From sequence record OM135583.1: a stretch of DNA of 64,000 nucleotides; one strand, written 5' to 3'. The stretch's first letter is position 1; each line of letters begins with the position of its first letter. Below, piece by piece: positions 50-38,475 of this stretch. This DNA comes from Escherichia phage EP01. The notes beneath the pieces are model-generated. The model did not search any database and was not told the DNA's origin. It was given only the letters and a program-made list of their open reading frames with translations. Position numbers and translations under genes: made by a program.

Positions 50-505
50 TTAAAAGAGGTTGTTCATTATTCGGTAAAGTGAAGGACCCATCACATATTG
101 CCACTGAGTACGAGGAATAAGAGCAAAAGCATCCATCTCTGGAATCATAACGCCATCTTTATTTTCAAAATAAGACTCGCAATGGCAATTTCTAAACATC
201 TCATGCTCTACTGGAATCGTATAATAAAACAGATGTAAGTCTTTATTACTAGAATATTTAAATACACCTAGGTCTTCTAGAAGGTCTGGATTATAATTGT
301 TAAAACCAGTCTCTTCTAAACATTCTCTTCGTGCTGCATCTAGTGCGCTTAAATCAGAATTTTCTACGCGGCCCTTTGGGATATCCCAGCGATGTGCCAT
401 CATTCCAGGCTTACGAGAACCAGTAACCCGTCCCATGAATAAATCTTTATCTTCTGTCATAAAGATAATACCAGCTGATAATGTTTTCATTTTAATTTCC
501 TGCAT
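50..505 (-). CDS. nudE: Nudix hydrolase (T4 NudE / e.1-like)
   Basis: 151 aa; Nudix box G-x5-D-x7-RECLEETGF read in translation (GRVENSDLSALDAARRECLEETGF); position matches T4 e.1. Confidence 0.9.
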   Translation of the reverse strand: MQEIKMKTLSAGIIFMTEDKDLFMGRVTGSRKPGMMAHRWDIPKGRVENSDLSALDAARRECLEETGFNNYNPDLLEDLGVFKYSSNKDLHLFYYTIPVEHEMFRNCHCESYFENKDGVMIPEMDAFALIPRTQWQYVMGPSLYRIMNNLF

Positions 506-3221: not shown

Positions 3222-3539
3222 TTATTTCATATTATTGAAATATTCTTCTGCGATTTCATCGTTATCGTGGTAAACTTTAGAAGACAGTTTAACATAACCT
3301 TCAGCAGTGAACATATTAATCACAACTTTTACAGTATACCACTGACCGTCTTCATTACCCATTACTGCGTAAGTTTCAAACATCGGATGGTCAGGACCGA
3401 TGACTTTAATATCATTCACTGTACGACCGAAATCTTCTGAAACGCATTTCATAAAGAAGTTGAACAGTTCGCCGTAATTATCCATTTCATTCTCCAAGTT
3501 GTTTTTCTGTATCAGTAGTTGATAGTTGTATAGTACCAT
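3222..3539 (-). CDS. hypothetical early protein
   Basis: 105 aa ORF; early promoter cassette immediately upstream (3530-3559). Confidence 0.6.
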   Translation of the reverse strand: MVLYNYQLLIQKNNLENEMDNYGELFNFFMKCVSEDFGRTVNDIKVIGPDHPMFETYAVMGNEDGQWYTVKVVINMFTAEGYVKLSSKVYHDNDEIAEEYFNNMK

Positions 3540-3692: not shown

Positions 3693-3719
3693 CCAAAAAG
3701 CCCTATCATTTAGATAGGG
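3693..3719 (-). terminator. rho-independent terminator
   Basis: Stem CCCTATC/GATAGGG followed on the minus transcript by CUUUUUGG. Confidence 0.6.
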
Positions 3720-3727
3720 ATTTAAAA

Positions 3728-4291
3728 TTATTTATCTAGTTTAGCTATTATAGCTTCTGCGGCAGCTTTTAGTTTAGATGCGGTGTTAATACGATTTTTA
3801 ATTTCAGTATACGCATCGCCAAGAACGTCAAGGCTATCAGAATAAACGCTTACACTATTGCGTTCGCTATTTGAAATAGAACCTTTAGTTTTACGATCAA
3901 AATCGATGTACACGTCTTGAAGATCACGGGCTGCCTTCTTTGCATCATCCAATGCATCAAGAGCTTTATTCAAAGCATTAACGTATTTTTTAGTGTCGAA
4001 CATATTCTTAGAAATTTTAACAGGCGCACGTTCAGGAGTAGCTAAGGCAGATTTAGGAACCTGAGCGCCAGATGCCAGTTTCTTAGAAATTTTGAAAAAT
4101 GCTTTATTGAATTTATTTTCTTGACTCATCGTAAAAGAACTATTATCAATGTTATACATTTCAATAGCTTTAGCTTTCCACTTAAGAAAATCGCCACGGT
4201 CTTTTGGGTCCAATTGGAAGAATACTTTAGTAAGTTCTGCTTCAGATGGTAATTTTGCTGCTTCGGTTAAAAATTCGGCATAAGTTTTCAT
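3728..4291 (-). CDS. internal-protein-like protein with N-terminal capsid targeting sequence
   Basis: 187 aa; N-terminus MKTYAEFLTEAA matches the T4 IP capsid-targeting consensus MKTYQEFIAEA with a predicted prohead-protease site after ..TE; followed by rho-independent terminator. Confidence 0.6.
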   Translation of the reverse strand: MKTYAEFLTEAAKLPSEAELTKVFFQLDPKDRGDFLKWKAKAIEMYNIDNSSFTMSQENKFNKAFFKISKKLASGAQVPKSALATPERAPVKISKNMFDTKKYVNALNKALDALDDAKKAARDLQDVYIDFDRKTKGSISNSERNSVSVYSDSLDVLGDAYTEIKNRINTASKLKAAAEAIIAKLDK

Positions 4292-4379
4292 TTAAAATCC
4301 TTGAAATAATCTATCGGTTGGTTATTAATTATTTATTACTTTGTTATTATCCGTAACAGCGTTATCCGAGTGATTCAAA

Positions 4380-4728
4380 CTAAAAAGCCCCAACCTTTCG
4401 GTCGGGGCTAAGCCTTGCGGCAACCTTGTCGGGGTTCCACCTGCTAAGGCAAGTGTTTGTACGAAACGCCGGGATTCGAACCCGGTTATTAAGCAGTTGA
4501 CGCTACTTAATATTTTTAAAAGGCCATATCTCGACCATATCCGAACGTTCCGTCAAAAACGCTACTCGGCTTACGGCAAAGATATTTCCTCGAATCGATA
4601 ATTCGGTGCGCCGTTTCTGCTGTGATGTAAGAGGGCATCAACAAATCATAAAGATTTATTAACACAATTCCTTACCCAGGGAACATCAGTCCGACGACTT
4701 ACCGGTAGCGACCCGGTTTCTTGTTTGG
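4380..4728 (-). ncRNA. candidate small stable RNA gene(s) (by position, T4 RNA species C/D-like)
   Basis: About 340 bp with no ORF, between tRNA-Arg and the next early gene; contains a tRNA-like T-arm (CCGGG-ATTCGAA-CCCGG at 4469-4485) and several stem-loops; boundaries not determined. Confidence 0.3.
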
Positions 4729-4802
4729 TCGAGGCAGAAGGATTCTAACCTTCAACCAACGGATTAGAAATCCGTTGCTCTATACAATTGAGCTATGCCT
4801 CG
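4729..4802 (-). tRNA. tRNA-Arg (anticodon UCU)
   Basis: Acceptor stem halves 4730-4736/4796-4802; T-arm 4737-4753; anticodon loop UUUCUAA. Confidence 0.8.
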
Positions 4803-5470
4803 TAGTTAAAATTCATTTTTCGACCTTTAAACCATCCTTCTGGAATTGGGTCAGTTTTCTTAATACGTTTAGAAACTTTTTCATCTAATGAATGAATCCA
4901 CATCATACCAAATTGGGAATTCTTTTCACCTTGTTGGTGTTTATTTCTGGCGTGAGATTCTTTCATTTTATTAATAGTTTCAGGAGTATGGGTCTTACCC
5001 AAGAAAGATTTAGTATTTAAAAATTTCTCTCTATACTTAGGATTATCCCAAAGCTGTTTAAACCTTTCTGAACCCATTTTACGGTATTTTTCTTTAAGGT
5101 CTGGGTCGTTCTCAAATCTGATTTTAAAAGCGGCAGCTCCTTTTAAGGAAGCTTCTTTCTTTTTATCCAAATATTCTTTAGTGTTTAAATGGCCCCAACC
5201 ACCTTCACCACCTAATTTCAAATTATAAACATCAGGGCGCTTTAAAAACTCTTCAGTCACAATATTCTTTTCTGACTCAAACATAGAGGTTTTATCGTCA
5301 AAGAACTCTAATATTTCTTTAGAAAAATTTTCTATACCATACTTGTCTTGGGCTCTTTTTAATAATTTACCAGAACCCATATATCCATCATCTAAATTTT
5401 CGGTAGAATGAGCGCCTATATAGATTTTATTATTAATTTTATTTGTTATTTTATAAATGTAATGGAACAT
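4793..5470 (-). CDS. segB: GIY-YIG homing endonuclease (SegB-like)
   Basis: 225 aa; N-terminal GIY-x10-YIG module (HYIYKITNKINNKIYIGAH); sits inside the tRNA cluster as in T4. Confidence 0.8.
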   Translation of the reverse strand: MFHYIYKITNKINNKIYIGAHSTENLDDGYMGSGKLLKRAQDKYGIENFSKEILEFFDDKTSMFESEKNIVTEEFLKRPDVYNLKLGGEGGWGHLNTKEYLDKKKEASLKGAAAFKIRFENDPDLKEKYRKMGSERFKQLWDNPKYREKFLNTKSFLGKTHTPETINKMKESHARNKHQQGEKNSQFGMMWIHSLDEKVSKRIKKTDPIPEGWFKGRKMNFNYEA

Positions 5471-5511
5471 AAATATCTCCTATTTCTAAGAGTATTTATG
5501 CTCCCAAAATA

Positions 5512-5583
5512 TGGCCCTGGGTGGAATTGAACCACCATCTGGCGATTATGAGTCGCTTGCTTGAACCTTCCAGCTACAGGGCC
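5512..5583 (-). tRNA. tRNA-Ile (anticodon CAU, Met-type anticodon presumably modified to read AUA)
   Basis: Acceptor halves 5513-5519/5577-5583; T-arm GGTGG-AATTGAA-CCACC; anticodon loop CUCAUAA. Confidence 0.8.
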
Positions 5584-5589
5584 TTGATA

Positions 5590-5662
5590 TGCTGATTGAC
5601 GGAATCGAACCGCCGACGTCCTCATTACAAGTGAGTTGCTCTACCTACTGAGCTAAATCAGC
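5590..5662 (-). tRNA. tRNA-Thr (anticodon UGU)
   Basis: Acceptor halves 5591-5597/5656-5662; anticodon loop CUUGUAA. Confidence 0.8.
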
Positions 5663-5669
5663 GAAATTA

Positions 5670-5756
5670 CGGAGGCGATAGGATTTGAACCTATGAGTCG
5701 CCGGAGCGACTGCCGGTTTTCAAGACCGGTGCATTAAACCACTCTGCCACGCCTCC
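5670..5756 (-). tRNA. tRNA-Ser (anticodon UGA)
   Basis: Acceptor halves 5671-5677/5750-5756; long variable arm; anticodon loop CUUGAAA. Confidence 0.8.
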
Positions 5757-5758
5757 AG

Positions 5759-5832
5759 TCTCCGCGGCAGGATTTGAACCTGCGACATTCTGCTCCCAAA
5801 GCAGACGCTCTACCAAACTGAGCTACACGGAG
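5759..5832 (-). tRNA. tRNA-Pro (anticodon UGG)
   Basis: Acceptor halves 5760-5766/5826-5832 (one G-U pair); T-arm GCAGG-ATTTGAA-CCTGC; anticodon loop UUUGGGA. Confidence 0.8.
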
Positions 5833-5844
5833 TAAATTAAATTT

Positions 5845-5916
<72 letters not shown>

Positions 5917-5925
5917 AAACTTTGG

Positions 5926-6009
5926 TACGAGAAGTGGGACTCGAACCCACAAGGAAATCATTCCGCAGCATTTTAAGTGCTGTGCCTTTACCAATTTGAC
6001 CATTCTCGC
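5926..6009 (-). tRNA. tRNA-Leu (anticodon UAA)
   Basis: Acceptor halves 5927-5933/6003-6009; long variable arm; T-arm GTGGG-ACTCGAA-CCCAC; anticodon loop CUUAAAA. Confidence 0.8.
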
Positions 6010-6010
6010 G

Positions 6011-6083
6011 CTGGGAATAAAGGACTCGAACCTTTGCATCCTGGAATCAAAATCCAGTGCCTTACCAACTTGGCTAATTCCCA
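6011..6083 (-). tRNA. tRNA-Gln (anticodon UUG)
   Basis: Acceptor halves 6012-6018/6077-6083; T-arm AAAGG-ACTCGAA-CCTTT; anticodon loop UUUUGAU. Confidence 0.8.
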
Positions 6084-6714: not shown

Positions 6715-6939
6715 TTATTCCGCTCCAGCAGCTTTCAAAAGCTTTTTAAGATTAGCAGTGCCACGAGCAGAAAACGTGACTTTACCATCCTTTTCACTAA
6801 TAGAGCCAGTTAACTTAGAAAGTTTATCGCTAGGAATTTTTTTAAAATCACTTAATGTACCATCAAAAGTTTTCGTAACAATTGGTAGTTCATCTTCATG
6901 TCTTTTAGCTTCAGCGATAAATTTTTGATAAGTTTTCAT
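6715..6939 (-). CDS. internal-protein-like (capsid targeting sequence)
   Basis: 74 aa; N-terminus MKTYQKFIAEA = T4 IP capsid-targeting motif; own promoter cassette. Confidence 0.65.
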   Translation of the reverse strand: MKTYQKFIAEAKRHEDELPIVTKTFDGTLSDFKKIPSDKLSKLTGSISEKDGKVTFSARGTANLKKLLKAAGAE

Positions 6940-7007
6940 TTTATTCTCCTCAGTAGTTGATAGGGTAATAATATCACTACCCTATCTAAAAGTAAACGGT
7001 TTATAAA
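6940..7007 (-). promoter_or_regulatory. promoter/stem-loop cassette (PeSL-like) with early promoter
   Basis: Near-identical repeat; inverted repeat GATAGGG/CCCTATC (6959-6965/6980-6986); -10 6968-6973, -35 6992-6997. Confidence 0.65.
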
Positions 7008-7316
7008 CTATTTTATTCCGCGTGATGCAATTGTGTTCTGCCGTTTAGCACCAGTTTGTTTAAAGTCATGATTGTCGATTTGATCGGTACGAGCAACTCC
7101 GAATGATGATTTGATTTTAGCTTTAGATCCTTTAGTTATAGAAATAAACATCTCGGAAGCCCCTTTCTTAAAGTCCGAGGCGATTACTTCAACGCCGTTC
7201 TTAGCAAGTGACCTCAGAATTGCTTCCGCATACTCATCATCAAGACCCGCTTGAGTATAAATAATGAATGTCTTTGGTGCAGCCGCTTCATTGATAAATT
7301 CTTGGTAAGTTTTCAT
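7008..7316 (-). CDS. internal-protein-like (capsid targeting sequence)
   Basis: 102 aa; N-terminus MKTYQEFINEA; own promoter cassette. Confidence 0.65.
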   Translation of the reverse strand: MKTYQEFINEAAAPKTFIIYTQAGLDDEYAEAILRSLAKNGVEVIASDFKKGASEMFISITKGSKAKIKSSFGVARTDQIDNHDFKQTGAKRQNTIASRGIK

Positions 7317-7376
7317 TTTATTTTCCTAATTAATTTTGATAAGGTAATAGTACCACAACCCTATTTAAAAGTAAAC
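7317..7376 (-). promoter_or_regulatory. promoter/stem-loop cassette (PeSL-like) with early promoter
   Basis: Variant repeat CATTTTATTTTCCTAATTAATTTTGATAAGGTAATAGTACC; -10 7347-7352, -35 7371-7376. Confidence 0.6.
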
Positions 7377-7649
7377 TCATTTTAAATAAATTGCGTATTT
7401 TTTATAACCCGCTGACTCATGACGAAGACCCTTATCATTAGCAAAACGCTCAATGTTGTTAATTTGATTCTGGTCAAGTTCAGAGATGTCAAACACGAAA
7501 TAGTTACGTTTGTTACCAACTGTTACATAGTCAGTTAAATCAATACCATATAGGTAATTGATGTTATCAATCATAGTCTTGACAGCTTTGCTAATTTTTA
7601 CTTTTTCGTTAAAAGTAGCTTCATTGATAAATTCTTTAAATGTTTTCAT
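7377..7649 (-). CDS. internal-protein-like (capsid targeting sequence)
   Basis: 90 aa; N-terminus MKTFKEFINEA; own promoter cassette. Confidence 0.65.
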   Translation of the reverse strand: MKTFKEFINEATFNEKVKISKAVKTMIDNINYLYGIDLTDYVTVGNKRNYFVFDISELDQNQINNIERFANDKGLRHESAGYKKYAIYLK

Positions 7650-7725
7650 TTTATTCTCCTCAGTAGTTGATAGGGTAATAGTATCACAACTAAAACCCTA
7701 TGTAAACAACTTTGTGAAATATTTA
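7650..7725 (-). promoter_or_regulatory. promoter/stem-loop cassette (PeSL-like) with early promoter
   Basis: Repeat copy; -10 7678-7683, -35 7702-7707; ATAGGG/CCCTAT inverted repeat; A/T-rich upstream element. Confidence 0.65.
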
Positions 7726-8013
7726 TTACAAAAGATTTTTAGCAATAATCTTGAGATGTGCCGCAGAAATGTGTTTAGCTTTAAACAACGCAGTTTCTTC
7801 AGCAGGAGAGATAATGATTGTAGCACCATCCTTTTTAGCAGACCACCCATCACCTAGGTAAACAGTACCTTTGATTTCTTCGCCATCAACCAAACTAATC
7901 ATTGGTTTACCTTCTCGTCCTTTATTTGCTTTAATAACTTCAGAAGTAAGAGTAGCTTCAGTAATAGTAGAAACCGGGATAGTTGTAGAAGTAAATTCTT
8001 TGAAAGTTTTCAT
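7726..8013 (-). CDS. ipI: internal protein I-like (IPI)
   Basis: 95 aa; MKTFKEF.. targeting sequence; predicted cleavage after ..ITE leaves 76 residues, the size of mature T4 IPI*; adjacent to 57B as in T4. Confidence 0.7.
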   Translation of the reverse strand: MKTFKEFTSTTIPVSTITEATLTSEVIKANKGREGKPMISLVDGEEIKGTVYLGDGWSAKKDGATIIISPAEETALFKAKHISAAHLKIIAKNLL

Positions 8014-36329: not shown

Positions 36330-36330
<1 letters not shown>

Positions 36331-36572
36331 TGGAAGGTTTAATTGAAGCTATTAAATCAAACGACCTCGTAGCCGCTCGTAAATTATTTGCTGAAGCCAT
36401 GGCTGCAAGAACGATTGATTTAATTAAAGAAGAAAAAATCGCTATCGCCCGTAATTTCTTAATCGAAGGTGAAGAACCTGAAGACGAGGATGATGACGAA
36501 GATGGTGATGATAAAGACGACAAAAAAGACAAAGACTCTGACGAAGATGACGAAGACGAGGATGATGAATAA
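36330..36572 (+). CDS. 67: prohead core protein gp67
   Basis: 80 aa with extremely acidic C-terminal tail ([33 protein letters not shown]). Confidence 0.9.
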
Positions 36573-36997
36573 TGCTTCTGATCCCTGAAACTCATGAATT
36601 AGTTCTCGAGAATGTCGAAGCACTTATTCCTGAAGCACAGGGTCGCTTTGACGAATTGTCTTCTGCTTTAAATAAAGACGATATAAATACAATTATCGAG
36701 AATATGCTTGATGATGAAACTGATTTAGCAGTTGCATTAGCTTCTATTAATGAAAATATGCCGTTAAATGAATTCATTGTTAAGCATGTTTCAGCTCGTG
36801 GTGAAATTACACGTACTAAAGACCGCAAAACACGCGAACGTAATGCATTTCAAACCACCGGGCTGTCTAAAGCAAAACGTAGACAAATTGCTCGCAAAGC
36901 TACCAAAACGAAGATTGCCAATCCAGCAGGTCAATCTCGTGCTCAGCGTAAGCGTAAAAAAGCTCTTAAACGCCGTAAAGCATTAGGATTAAGCTAA
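36572..36997 (+). CDS. 68: prohead core protein gp68
   Basis: 141 aa; basic C-terminus; synteny. Confidence 0.88.
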
Positions 36998-37635
36998 TGA
37001 ATGAACCCCAATTACTAATTGAAACTTGGGGTCAACCTGGCGAAATTATTGATGGTGTGCCAATGCTTGAATCCCACGATGGAAAAGACTTAGGTTTAAA
37101 ACCGGGTTTATACATCGAAGGAATATTCATGCAAGCAGAAGTCGTCAATAGAAATAAACGTCTTTATCCAAAACGCATATTAGAAAAAGCGGTAAAAGAC
37201 TATATTAATGAGCAAGTTTTAACTAAACAGGCTCTCGGAGAATTAAATCATCCTCCACGCGCTAATGTTGACCCGATGCAAGCCGCTATCATTATAGAAG
37301 ATATGTGGTGGAAAGGAAATGACGTATACGGACGAGCTCGTGTTATTGAAGGTGACCACGGTCCTGGAGATAAATTAGCAGCTAATATTCGTGCCGGATG
37401 GATTCCAGGAGTTTCTTCTCGTGGATTAGGTTCATTGACTGACACAAATAAAGGTTATCGTATCGTAAACGAAGGATTCAAATTAACTGTAGGTGTTGAT
37501 GCAGTATGGGGTCCAAGTGCTCCAGATGCATGGGTAACTCCTAAGGAAATTACCGAATCACAGACGGCGGAAGCCGATACAAGTGCCGATGACGCCTATA
37601 TGGCTCTCGCAGAGGCCATGAAAAAAGCGTTATAA
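36997..37635 (+). CDS. 21: prohead core protease gp21
   Basis: 212 aa; synteny between 68 and 22. Confidence 0.92.
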   Translation: MNEPQLLIETWGQPGEIIDGVPMLESHDGKDLGLKPGLYIEGIFMQAEVVNRNKRLYPKRILEKAVKDYINEQVLTKQALGELNHPPRANVDPMQAAIIIEDMWWKGNDVYGRARVIEGDHGPGDKLAANIRAGWIPGVSSRGLGSLTDTNKGYRIVNEGFKLTVGVDAVWGPSAPDAWVTPKEITESQTAEADTSADDAYMALAEAMKKAL

Positions 37636-37665: not shown

Positions 37666-38475
37666 ATGCTTAAAGAACAACTGATTGCTGAAGCGCAAAA
37701 AATTGATGCTTCCGTTGCTCTTGATAGTATTTTCGAATCAGTTAATATTTCTCCGGAAGCAAAAGAAACTTTCGGCACTGTATTCGAAGCTACCGTCAAG
37801 CAGCACGCCGTTAAATTAGCTGAATCTCATATCGCTAAAATTGCTGAAAAAGCAGAAGAAGAAGTAGAAAAAAATAAAGAAGAAGCCGAAGAAAAAGCTG
37901 AGAAGAAAATCGCTGAGCAAGCTTCTAAATTCATCGACCATCTTGCGAAAGAATGGCTCGCTGAAAATAAATTAGCAGTTGATAAAGGCATCAAAGCCGA
38001 ACTGTTTGAATCCATGCTTGGTGGATTAAAAGAGCTCTTTGTTGAACACAACGTTGTTGTTCCAGAAGAATCAGTTGATGTTGTGGCTGAAATGGAAGAA
38101 GAGCTGCAAGAACATAAAGAAGAATCAGCTCGTCTGTTCGAAGAACTCAATATGCGCGACGCATATATCAATTATGTGCAGCGTGAAGTGGCATTGAGCG
38201 AAAGTACTAAAGATCTGACTGAGTCTCAAAAAGAAAAAGTCTCTGCTCTGGTCGAAGGTATGGATTATTCAGATGAATTCTCAAATAAATTGAGTGCCAT
38301 CGTAGAAATGGTGAAGAAGTCTAATAAAGATGAAAGCACTATTACTGAGGGTATAAATACTCCTGATACTGAAGCAGCCGGACTGAATTTCGTCACTGAA
38401 GCTGTAGAAGATAAAACTGCACCTGGTGCAGAAGATATTGTAAGTGTATATGCGAAAGTCGCATCTCGTTTCTAA
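37666..38475 (+). CDS. 22: prohead scaffold protein gp22
   Basis: 269 aa, E/K-rich helical scaffold; late promoter at 37632; contains the gene 23 late promoter near its 3' end. Confidence 0.92.
   Translation: MLKEQLIAEAQKIDASVALDSIFESVNISPEAKETFGTVFEATVKQHAVKLAESHIAKIAEKAEEEVEKNKEEAEEKAEKKIAEQASKFIDHLAKEWLAENKLAVDKGIKAELFESMLGGLKELFVEHNVVVPEESVDVVAEMEEELQEHKEESARLFEELNMRDAYINYVQREVALSESTKDLTESQKEKVSALVEGMDYSDEFSNKLSAIVEMVKKSNKDESTITEGINTPDTEAAGLNFVTEAVEDKTAPGAEDIVSVYAKVASRF
38352..38359 (+). promoter_or_regulatory. late promoter TATAAATA (gene 23), inside gene 22 coding sequence
   Basis: Exact box about 135 nt upstream of gene 23 ATG. Confidence 0.6.

Follow-up and report, generated by a model that had tools for sequence, protein, structure and literature searches.

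The 187-residue protein encoded on the minus strand at positions 3728..4291 of the window, by which is meant the whole 64-kb stretch of DNA analysed here, a portion of a T4-like (Tequatrovirus) genome, is probably an unannotated internal head protein of the T4 type. On balance, its sequence also favours packaging of the product into the head and its processing there. The site that it occupies between rnaC and e.8 is a gene slot not earlier counted among the internal protein (IP) loci, the product of which would probably be injected with the DNA. In the proposed course of events, the 187-aa protein would be made late in infection and built into the prohead through binding of its leader to the gp22-based scaffolding core. 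The gp21 protease would then cut after Glu10 to leave a Lys-rich, basic protein of 177 residues and 19.7 kDa with the new N-terminus AAKLPSEAELTK, and this protein would stay in the head with the DNA until its ejection into the next host.

The gene, its cassette and its expression signals

The reading frame opens with an ATG codon, begins MKTYAEFLTEAAKLPSEAE / MKTYAEFLTEAA in the ORF list of the window, and encodes a precursor with a mass of 20.9 kDa. It is accompanied by the following features.

50-505, minus strand: nudE
Up to 3539, minus strand: e.2 to e.8
3695..4381, minus strand: 687-bp unit of late-promoter box, ORF and terminator, missing from T4
3695-3703: right GGGCTTTTT repeat, at the end of the gene's own terminator
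3701..3719, minus strand: the gene's own intrinsic terminator, a hairpin and T-run 3' of the stop codon
3731..4261, minus strand: predicted mature protein, residues 11-187 (177 aa, 19.7 kDa, pI 9.46, 14.7% Lys)
4262..4291, minus strand: leader MKTYAEFLTE, codons 1-10, resembling a capsid targeting sequence (CTS), with predicted gp21 cleavage after Glu10 (L8-T9-E10/A11)
4298..4302, minus strand: Shine-Dalgarno sequence AAGGA, 6 nt 5' of the ATG, by direct reading
4330..4337, minus strand: AATAAATA, a variant form of the T4 late promoter with A at -13; it begins 46 nt 5' of the ATG, and A/T-rich DNA follows it
4382-4390: left GGGCTTTTT repeat, at the 3' end of the upstream terminator
4386..4409, minus strand: upstream intrinsic terminator, which closes the tRNA/rnaD/rnaC transcription unit
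4386-6083, minus strand: rnaC/rnaD region, tRNA-Arg, a segB-like GIY-YIG gene and seven more tRNAs
After the tRNA block, minus strand: two small tRNA-region ORFs, four IP genes, then genes 57B, 57A and 1
6715..8013, minus strand: IP array of four leader genes (74, 102, 90 and 95 aa), the 95-aa IPI being matched by Pfam IPI_T4 (E = 2e-53)

The gene is flanked on one side by e.8 (3222-3539) and on the other by the rnaC/rnaD-tRNA-Arg-segB-tRNA block (4386-6083), with the IP array (6715-8013) located on the opposite flank of the tRNA cluster. The original prediction of a 187-aa ORF with its own terminator, placed among the e.x genes on the far side of the tRNA cluster, is borne out by the ORF itself, by the hairpin and T-run found at 3719-3701 and by the position of the gene next to e.8 and opposite the IP array. 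Its description as lying outside the IP array is true of the location, but the situation is not an unusual one, as ipII and ipIII of T4 also lie apart from the ipI locus, between denV and e. The rnaC/e.8 slot differs from this denV-e slot and is empty in T4. The phage-collection records closest to the window over 12 kb are mosaics, 95-97% identical to it, and a search of the gene's region against Rfam returned tRNAs only.

Some neighbouring features deserve mention in their own right. The mechanical ORF of e.8 (3222-3539, minus strand) comprises 105 aa, of which the PHROG profile and the annotated orthologs begin at residue 19 (87 aa); since the e.8 early promoter at 3558-3530 would initiate within the 105-aa ORF, the shorter start is the real one. 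The segment at 5512-5583 (minus strand) is called as tRNA-Met (CAT) by ARAGORN, and T4 annotates a tRNA-Ile at the corresponding position. A 225-aa ORF at 4793-5470 (minus strand) aligns with the T4 segB region, which encodes a GIY-YIG homing endonuclease, and is situated between tRNA-Arg and the remaining tRNAs, as it is in T4; phage ECO07P1 has tRNA-Asn and tRNA-Tyr at this position.

T4 aligns with the window up to 3719 and resumes at 4379, with an overlap of 28 bp, and its junction, GGGGCTTTTT/GGTATCTA, corresponds to the two GGGCTTTTT repeats collapsed into one. T4 therefore differs by a clean terminator-to-terminator indel between two GGGCTTTTT terminator ends, in keeping with the cassette-type gain or loss that had been proposed for the gene. 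Four states of the slot are displayed among the phages compared: empty (T4), the 187-aa gene alone (the window and ECO07P1), a 157-aa gene alone (fD1), and the 157- and 187-aa genes in tandem (SA21RB and most relatives). In its sequence the unit resembles the PeSL cassettes of RB49/phi1 (PMC2839356), with a presumably non-essential and transcriptionally insulated ORF between repeated stem-loops or terminators and a presence/absence polymorphism at the repeats. Such repeats account for the clean insertion and deletion of PeSL cassettes between related phages (PMC2839356), and those of the 187-aa unit may do likewise. The promoter carried in the PeSL repeat element is of the early sigma-70 type, however, whereas the element of the 187-aa unit is of the late type.

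Of the variants of the T4 late promoter, the AATAAATA box is the one most often seen; among 50 such sites in T4, 32 carry TATAAATA and 9 carry A at -13 (PMC2988020). The late-promoter call for the 187-aa gene is of an 8-bp motif that has one mismatch. On the minus strand at 4292-4420, from the rnaC terminator to the ATG, a search for sigma-70-type promoters found none, whereas each IP-array gene in the window does have an early-type promoter of the form TTTAC(A/T)-17-TA(C/T)TAT. A MotA-type middle promoter was sought by eye and rejected, as GCTGTTA does not match the TGCTT box. Upstream of the homologs in JQD51, KMB19, 15882-6 and ValerieMcCarty04 a perfect TATAAATA starts at -33 to -43, and a GATAAATA box precedes the homologs in CHI14 and in the metagenomic contig L004; the boxes of these distant homologs each come directly after a terminator. 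Judged by these signals, the family looks like a monocistronic late unit inside an early region, as would be expected for a virion component.

The leader and the processing machinery

According to a review of the work of Lindsay Black (PMC9026906), the first 10 residues of IPIII are enough for encapsidation, and within this leader targeting is a function mainly of residues 4 and 7 and processing of residues 8 and 10. The 187-aa protein bears all four of these IPIII determinants, namely Y4 and F7 for targeting and L8 and E10 for processing, and its P1' residue is A11, as in IPII and IPIII. The L8-T9-E10 sequence is the sole [LI]xE site in the protein, and gp21 would thus remove the leader only.

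The leader match is not a product of chance. In a six-frame translation of the 64 kb, the pattern MKT[YF]x[EK]F has five matches, which are the 187-aa ORF and the four IP-array genes, against a chance expectation of ~0.0014 (at Met positions opening at least 40 codons), and the looser pattern M-x-x-[FYW]-x-[EQDK]-[FILMY]-[LIVTM]-x-E was observed four times where 0.046 were expected. Over all loci examined, this looser pattern matched only annotated IP genes, members of the 187-aa family and one neighbour of a family member. An [LI]xE site with its Glu at position 9 or 10 is present in 37 of 40 family members, the bodies of which are at about 20-30% identity. A 38th member has FTSE at positions 7-10 (Thr for Leu/Ile) together with ITE at position 17, as in IPI, and the remaining two begin at internal Mets and look like truncated calls. 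The codons used for the leader vary among family members and genera (TTT/TTC, TTA/TTG/ATC, GAA/GAG), a feature that implies selection on the peptide rather than on the DNA. That the leader represents a true CTS-type sequence is supported by these comparisons, and the IP-type N-terminal targeting motif originally predicted is upheld, with the IPIII determinants all present and the motif confined in the window to the IP genes and this ORF.

The machinery that would act on this leader is encoded elsewhere in the window.

36330-36925, plus strand: genes 67/68
36997..37632, plus strand: gene 21, prohead protease, 99.5% identical to T4 gp21
37666-38472, plus strand: gene 22, scaffold, 97.8% identical to T4 gp22

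The gp68 protein is 99% identical to that of T4, and gp67 is 100% identical over the aligned 45 of 80 residues. As gp21 and gp22 are near-identical to their T4 counterparts, the T4 leader rules should hold here.

The family, its predicted structure and the virion data

The predicted mature product lies within the size and charge range of IPI*, IPII and IPIII, being small, basic and Lys-rich; mature T4 IPIII comprises 183 aa with a pI of 9.65 and 13.7% Lys. AlphaFold2 returned a pLDDT of 79 from a 40-sequence alignment and of 59 from a shallow one. In the model, three helices form the N-domain (~17-73) and a further three the C-domain (101-185), the latter predicted with confidence, and the two are joined by a disordered linker rich in Pro, Ala and Lys (~74-100). 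Across the family it is the N-domain that is conserved, and the C-domain occurs in at least three unrelated versions. Foldseek searches returned nothing at E <=0.001 from the PDB and only uncharacterised family members from BFVD, and the modelled fold is a generic helical bundle without functional clue.

Sequence searches of Pfam, NCBIfam and the PDB, whether with the single protein or with the 40-sequence profile, gave sub-threshold noise only, as exemplified by cytochrome b562, which scored 17 bits where the cut-off was 30. The protein does match PHROG 2280 ('unknown function'; E = 3.4e-53, residues 1-181 against profile positions 1-178 of 178), as do its homologs in other genera. By tblastn the 187-aa gene is present in 164 phage records, 163 of them at least 95% identical and one 83%, and among the 60 matches listed the annotation reads 'hypothetical protein' or 'Phage protein' or is missing altogether. 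The flanking DNA matches ~729 records, so that roughly one fifth carry the gene. HMMER over 1.84 billion representatives yielded one true distant relative (P0013, 32% identity), and profile searches seeded with it recovered ~45 clusters, with proteins 186-218 aa long and contigs of 165-175 kb. A tblastn search with this relative matched 350 phage records, comprising phages of Escherichia, Klebsiella, Enterobacter, Serratia, Yersinia, Raoultella, Erwinia and Kosakonia. No match to the locus tags or PHROG number of the family was found in the literature.

Homologs at 20-30% identity occupy the same slot, immediately 3' of the tRNA block and 5' of the e.x genes, in Mosigvirus JQD51, Karamvirus KMB19, Winklervirus CHI14 and the Jiaodavirus phages 15882-6 and ValerieMcCarty04, and both the N-domain and the genomic slot are kept across at least five genera. 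As the slot is shared by distant genera, the gene is an old resident rather than a recent relocation, and the relocation suggested earlier is not supported.

Damaged and rearranged copies also occur. The RB69 copy, which is of the Tequatrovirus type (L008 11429-11991, minus strand), is split into ORF149c and ORF148c by a 1-nt deletion after codon 122, and the copies in G29 and OE5505 are frameshifted as well; these splits reflect either real pseudogenisation or old sequencing errors. Chimeric or truncated versions are found in public assemblies (P0010, P0011, P0012 and P0015). In one chimera the C-terminal 65 residues follow an unrelated N-terminus without leader, and in another residues 97-122 are joined to the C-terminus of NudE; the chimeras suggest deletion or recombination events spanning the e.x region.

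The gene has a distribution of the dispensable type, as IPs do, being present in 164 of ~729 records, frameshifted in RB69, G29 and OE5505 and absent from T4. In T4, Ip1, Ip2 and Ip3 block one GmrSD-type restriction enzyme each, a different one in every case (PMC12373910), and by analogy an anti-defence role after injection may be offered as a first guess. A role in head assembly or DNA packing, as for IPIII, is no less plausible, because the N-domain is unusually conserved across genera and the C-domain is swappable.

A related reading holds that the protein would be packaged and would have its main job inside the head, as a scaffold-core accessory or as a DNA-condensing protein of the kind proposed for IPIII, and would not be an injected anti-defence factor. 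The predicted all-helical, basic and Lys-rich character of the protein, with its long helical C-domain, is consistent with such a task, as is its IPIII-like size and charge, the loss of IPIII being known to slow head assembly (PMC9026906). The N-domain and slot are, moreover, kept in at least five genera, unlike the hypervariable IPs of the arms race. Yet the gene is missing from T4 and most related records and frameshifted in several phages, and its absence from these genomes argues that it is not needed for head assembly; further, the existence of at least three unrelated C-domain versions would fit target-driven diversification better. A main function inside the head is considered doubtful.

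The virion data that bear on the preferred reading, that of a T4-type internal head protein, concern in the first place the 157-aa protein g140 of Yersinia phage fD1. This protein displays the leader MKSYTQFLNE/A, and its gene, with a perfect TATAAATA box, occupies the same slot and immediately follows the rnaC terminator. Among the PHROGs, the 157-aa protein is assigned to PHROG 2280 (E = 1e-59). It was classed as a phage-particle-associated protein (PPAP) by LC-MS/MS of purified particles (Table S3, Skurnik et al. 2021). [quoted passage not shown] Together with its orthologs (e.g. SA21RB_137), fD1 g140 resembles the 187-aa protein in its leader, helical N-domain, KPAPK-type linker and helical C-domain, but when compared directly the 157- and 187-aa proteins are alike only in the leader and, weakly, in the C-domain (hhalign, 75% probability). 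Because the two genes occur in tandem in many phages, they are paralogs at most and not alleles, and g140 would, judged by its sequence, be at most a remote paralog of the 187-aa protein.

The 157-aa gene is absent from the window and present in most relatives (L003 2514-2987, minus strand; L012 5943-6416, minus strand). In these it is placed between the rnaC terminator and the 187-aa gene. It has the leader MKSYAQFLNE/A and a perfect TATAAATA box, and the 30-bp rnaC terminator is found in two copies, one on each side of it.

A second virion dataset is that of the Jiaodavirus ValerieMcCarty04, in which the family is represented by the intact protein WKM80661.1; its leader is shorter by one residue, and its gene is preceded by a perfect TATAAATA box. 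In the accessible portion of the virion LC-MS/MS table of this phage there is no row for WKM80661.1, and there are rows for its neighbours WKM80662, WKM80663 and WKM80664 and many for an IPII-like protein. For a known IP, the same study counted 1 spectrum in one phage and 26 in its sister. The literature yielded no virion proteome of any phage with a 187-aa ortholog; the 'proteomics' of UFV13 consisted of four gel bands only, and the fPS-65/90 paper is without proteomics.

According to a third reading, the product would be a late cytoplasmic protein outside the virion, the CTS resemblance of which goes back to a 5' gene module held in common and has ceased to direct packaging. The Jiaodavirus homolog did indeed go undetected, in the part of the table available, by a virion LC-MS/MS analysis that detected IPII-like and Alt-like proteins, and the first ~30 nt of the IP genes in the window are alike at the DNA level. 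Nevertheless, the leader is found in 37 of 40 homologs despite ~75% divergence elsewhere and is written in differing codons, and a decaying relic would not keep exactly the four functional positions. Moreover, the fD1 member of PHROG 2280 is virion-associated, and the negative dataset is an erratic one, as the 1 and 26 spectra of a known IP in the sister phages attest. This alternative is regarded as unlikely.

Relation to known internal proteins and significance

IPIII of T4 is packaged, processed and injected, and inhibits the GmrSD system of ECOR17 (PMC12373910). Its leader, MKTYQEFIAE, has three differences from the MKTYAEFLTE of the 187-aa protein, with positions 4 and 7 the same and a conservative I-to-L replacement at position 8, and the two proteins also share the E/A cleavage context, near-equal mature size and charge, and a non-essential character. 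There is, however, no detectable homology past residue 12 of the 187-aa protein, and the genes differ in both place and promoter, ipIII being situated between denV and e with an early-type -35/-10 promoter (GTTTAC...TAGTAT), whereas the 187-aa gene is located between rnaC and e.8 with a late-type box. The origin first suggested for the gene, as an IPIII-type paralog moved by cassette recombination, can draw on the likeness in length, charge and leader and on the repeated terminator ends that bound the unit and could mediate recombination, but is highly improbable, given that BLASTP against T4 IPIII aligns residues 1-12 only, that hhalign extends to just 25 columns at 6.8% probability, that the 187-aa protein belongs to PHROG 2280 and two of the array proteins and an IP-like protein of ECO07P1 to PHROGs 2667, 7673 and 3499, that the slot is syntenic in distant genera, and that ECO07P1, a related phage, has a separate ipIII, annotated as such, at the canonical place.

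The preferred reading, an internal head protein of the T4 type, finds its parallel in IPI, IPII and the T-even IP array as a whole (Repoila et al. 1994, as summarised in PMC12373910). From that summary, these are unrelated small basic proteins with a CTS-type leader alone in common, patchy in their occurrence among T-even phages, and each gene is self-contained with its own signals; the 187-aa gene is alike in these respects. It differs from the array genes of the window in that these have early-type promoters and it does not, and its product is twice the size of most array members. The 187-aa family is, in addition, kept across genera, whereas the array members are highly phage-specific. The PHROGs matched by the 74-, 102- and 90-aa array proteins carry the annotation internal head protein or internal virion protein; PHROGs 2667, 7673 and 3499 ('internal head protein') are those matched by the 102- and 90-aa proteins and by an IP-like protein of ECO07P1.

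Two further leader-bearing sequences were observed elsewhere. Between ipIII and denV, ECO07P1 has a 40-aa remnant with an IP leader, MKMYQEFIAEAD (L002 248-370, minus strand), at the place of which RB69 has a full 86-aa version, and this remnant is a decayed IP cassette. Directly 3' of the distant family member on the metagenomic contig SRR28624380_555336 is a 144-aa ORF (L004 2092-2526, plus strand) with the leader MITFKQFLNE/S, a CATAAATA box at -31 and matches to Pfam ART-PolyVal and DUF3990, which looks like a leader-tagged ADP-ribosyltransferase-like protein reminiscent of the packaged Alt.

A broader interpretation can be put forward tentatively, as possible rather than probable. In it, the rnaC/e.8 slot would be a third, unrecognised IP locus of the Tevenvirinae, made up of late-promoter cassettes that all bear a head-targeting leader. 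PHROG 2280 would constitute a modular family of injected effectors, in which a conserved N-domain, acting as a delivery or DNA-binding adaptor, is followed by a flexible linker and by interchangeable C-domains, each able to neutralise a host defence of its own, and the ART-PolyVal protein of the metagenomic contig would be another cargo of the same locus.

Since Ip1-3 of T4 each disarm a GmrSD enzyme (PMC12373910), any further leader-tagged protein is a candidate for a new injected anti-defence factor. The gene is present in at least 164 Tequatrovirus-type genomes and its family in ~350 phage records from several genera. Recognition of the 187-aa protein as an internal head protein would correct annotation at that scale and place one more conserved locus on the map of packaged proteins, and would offer those who engineer phages for therapy or T4 nanoparticles another natural cargo slot and leader variant.
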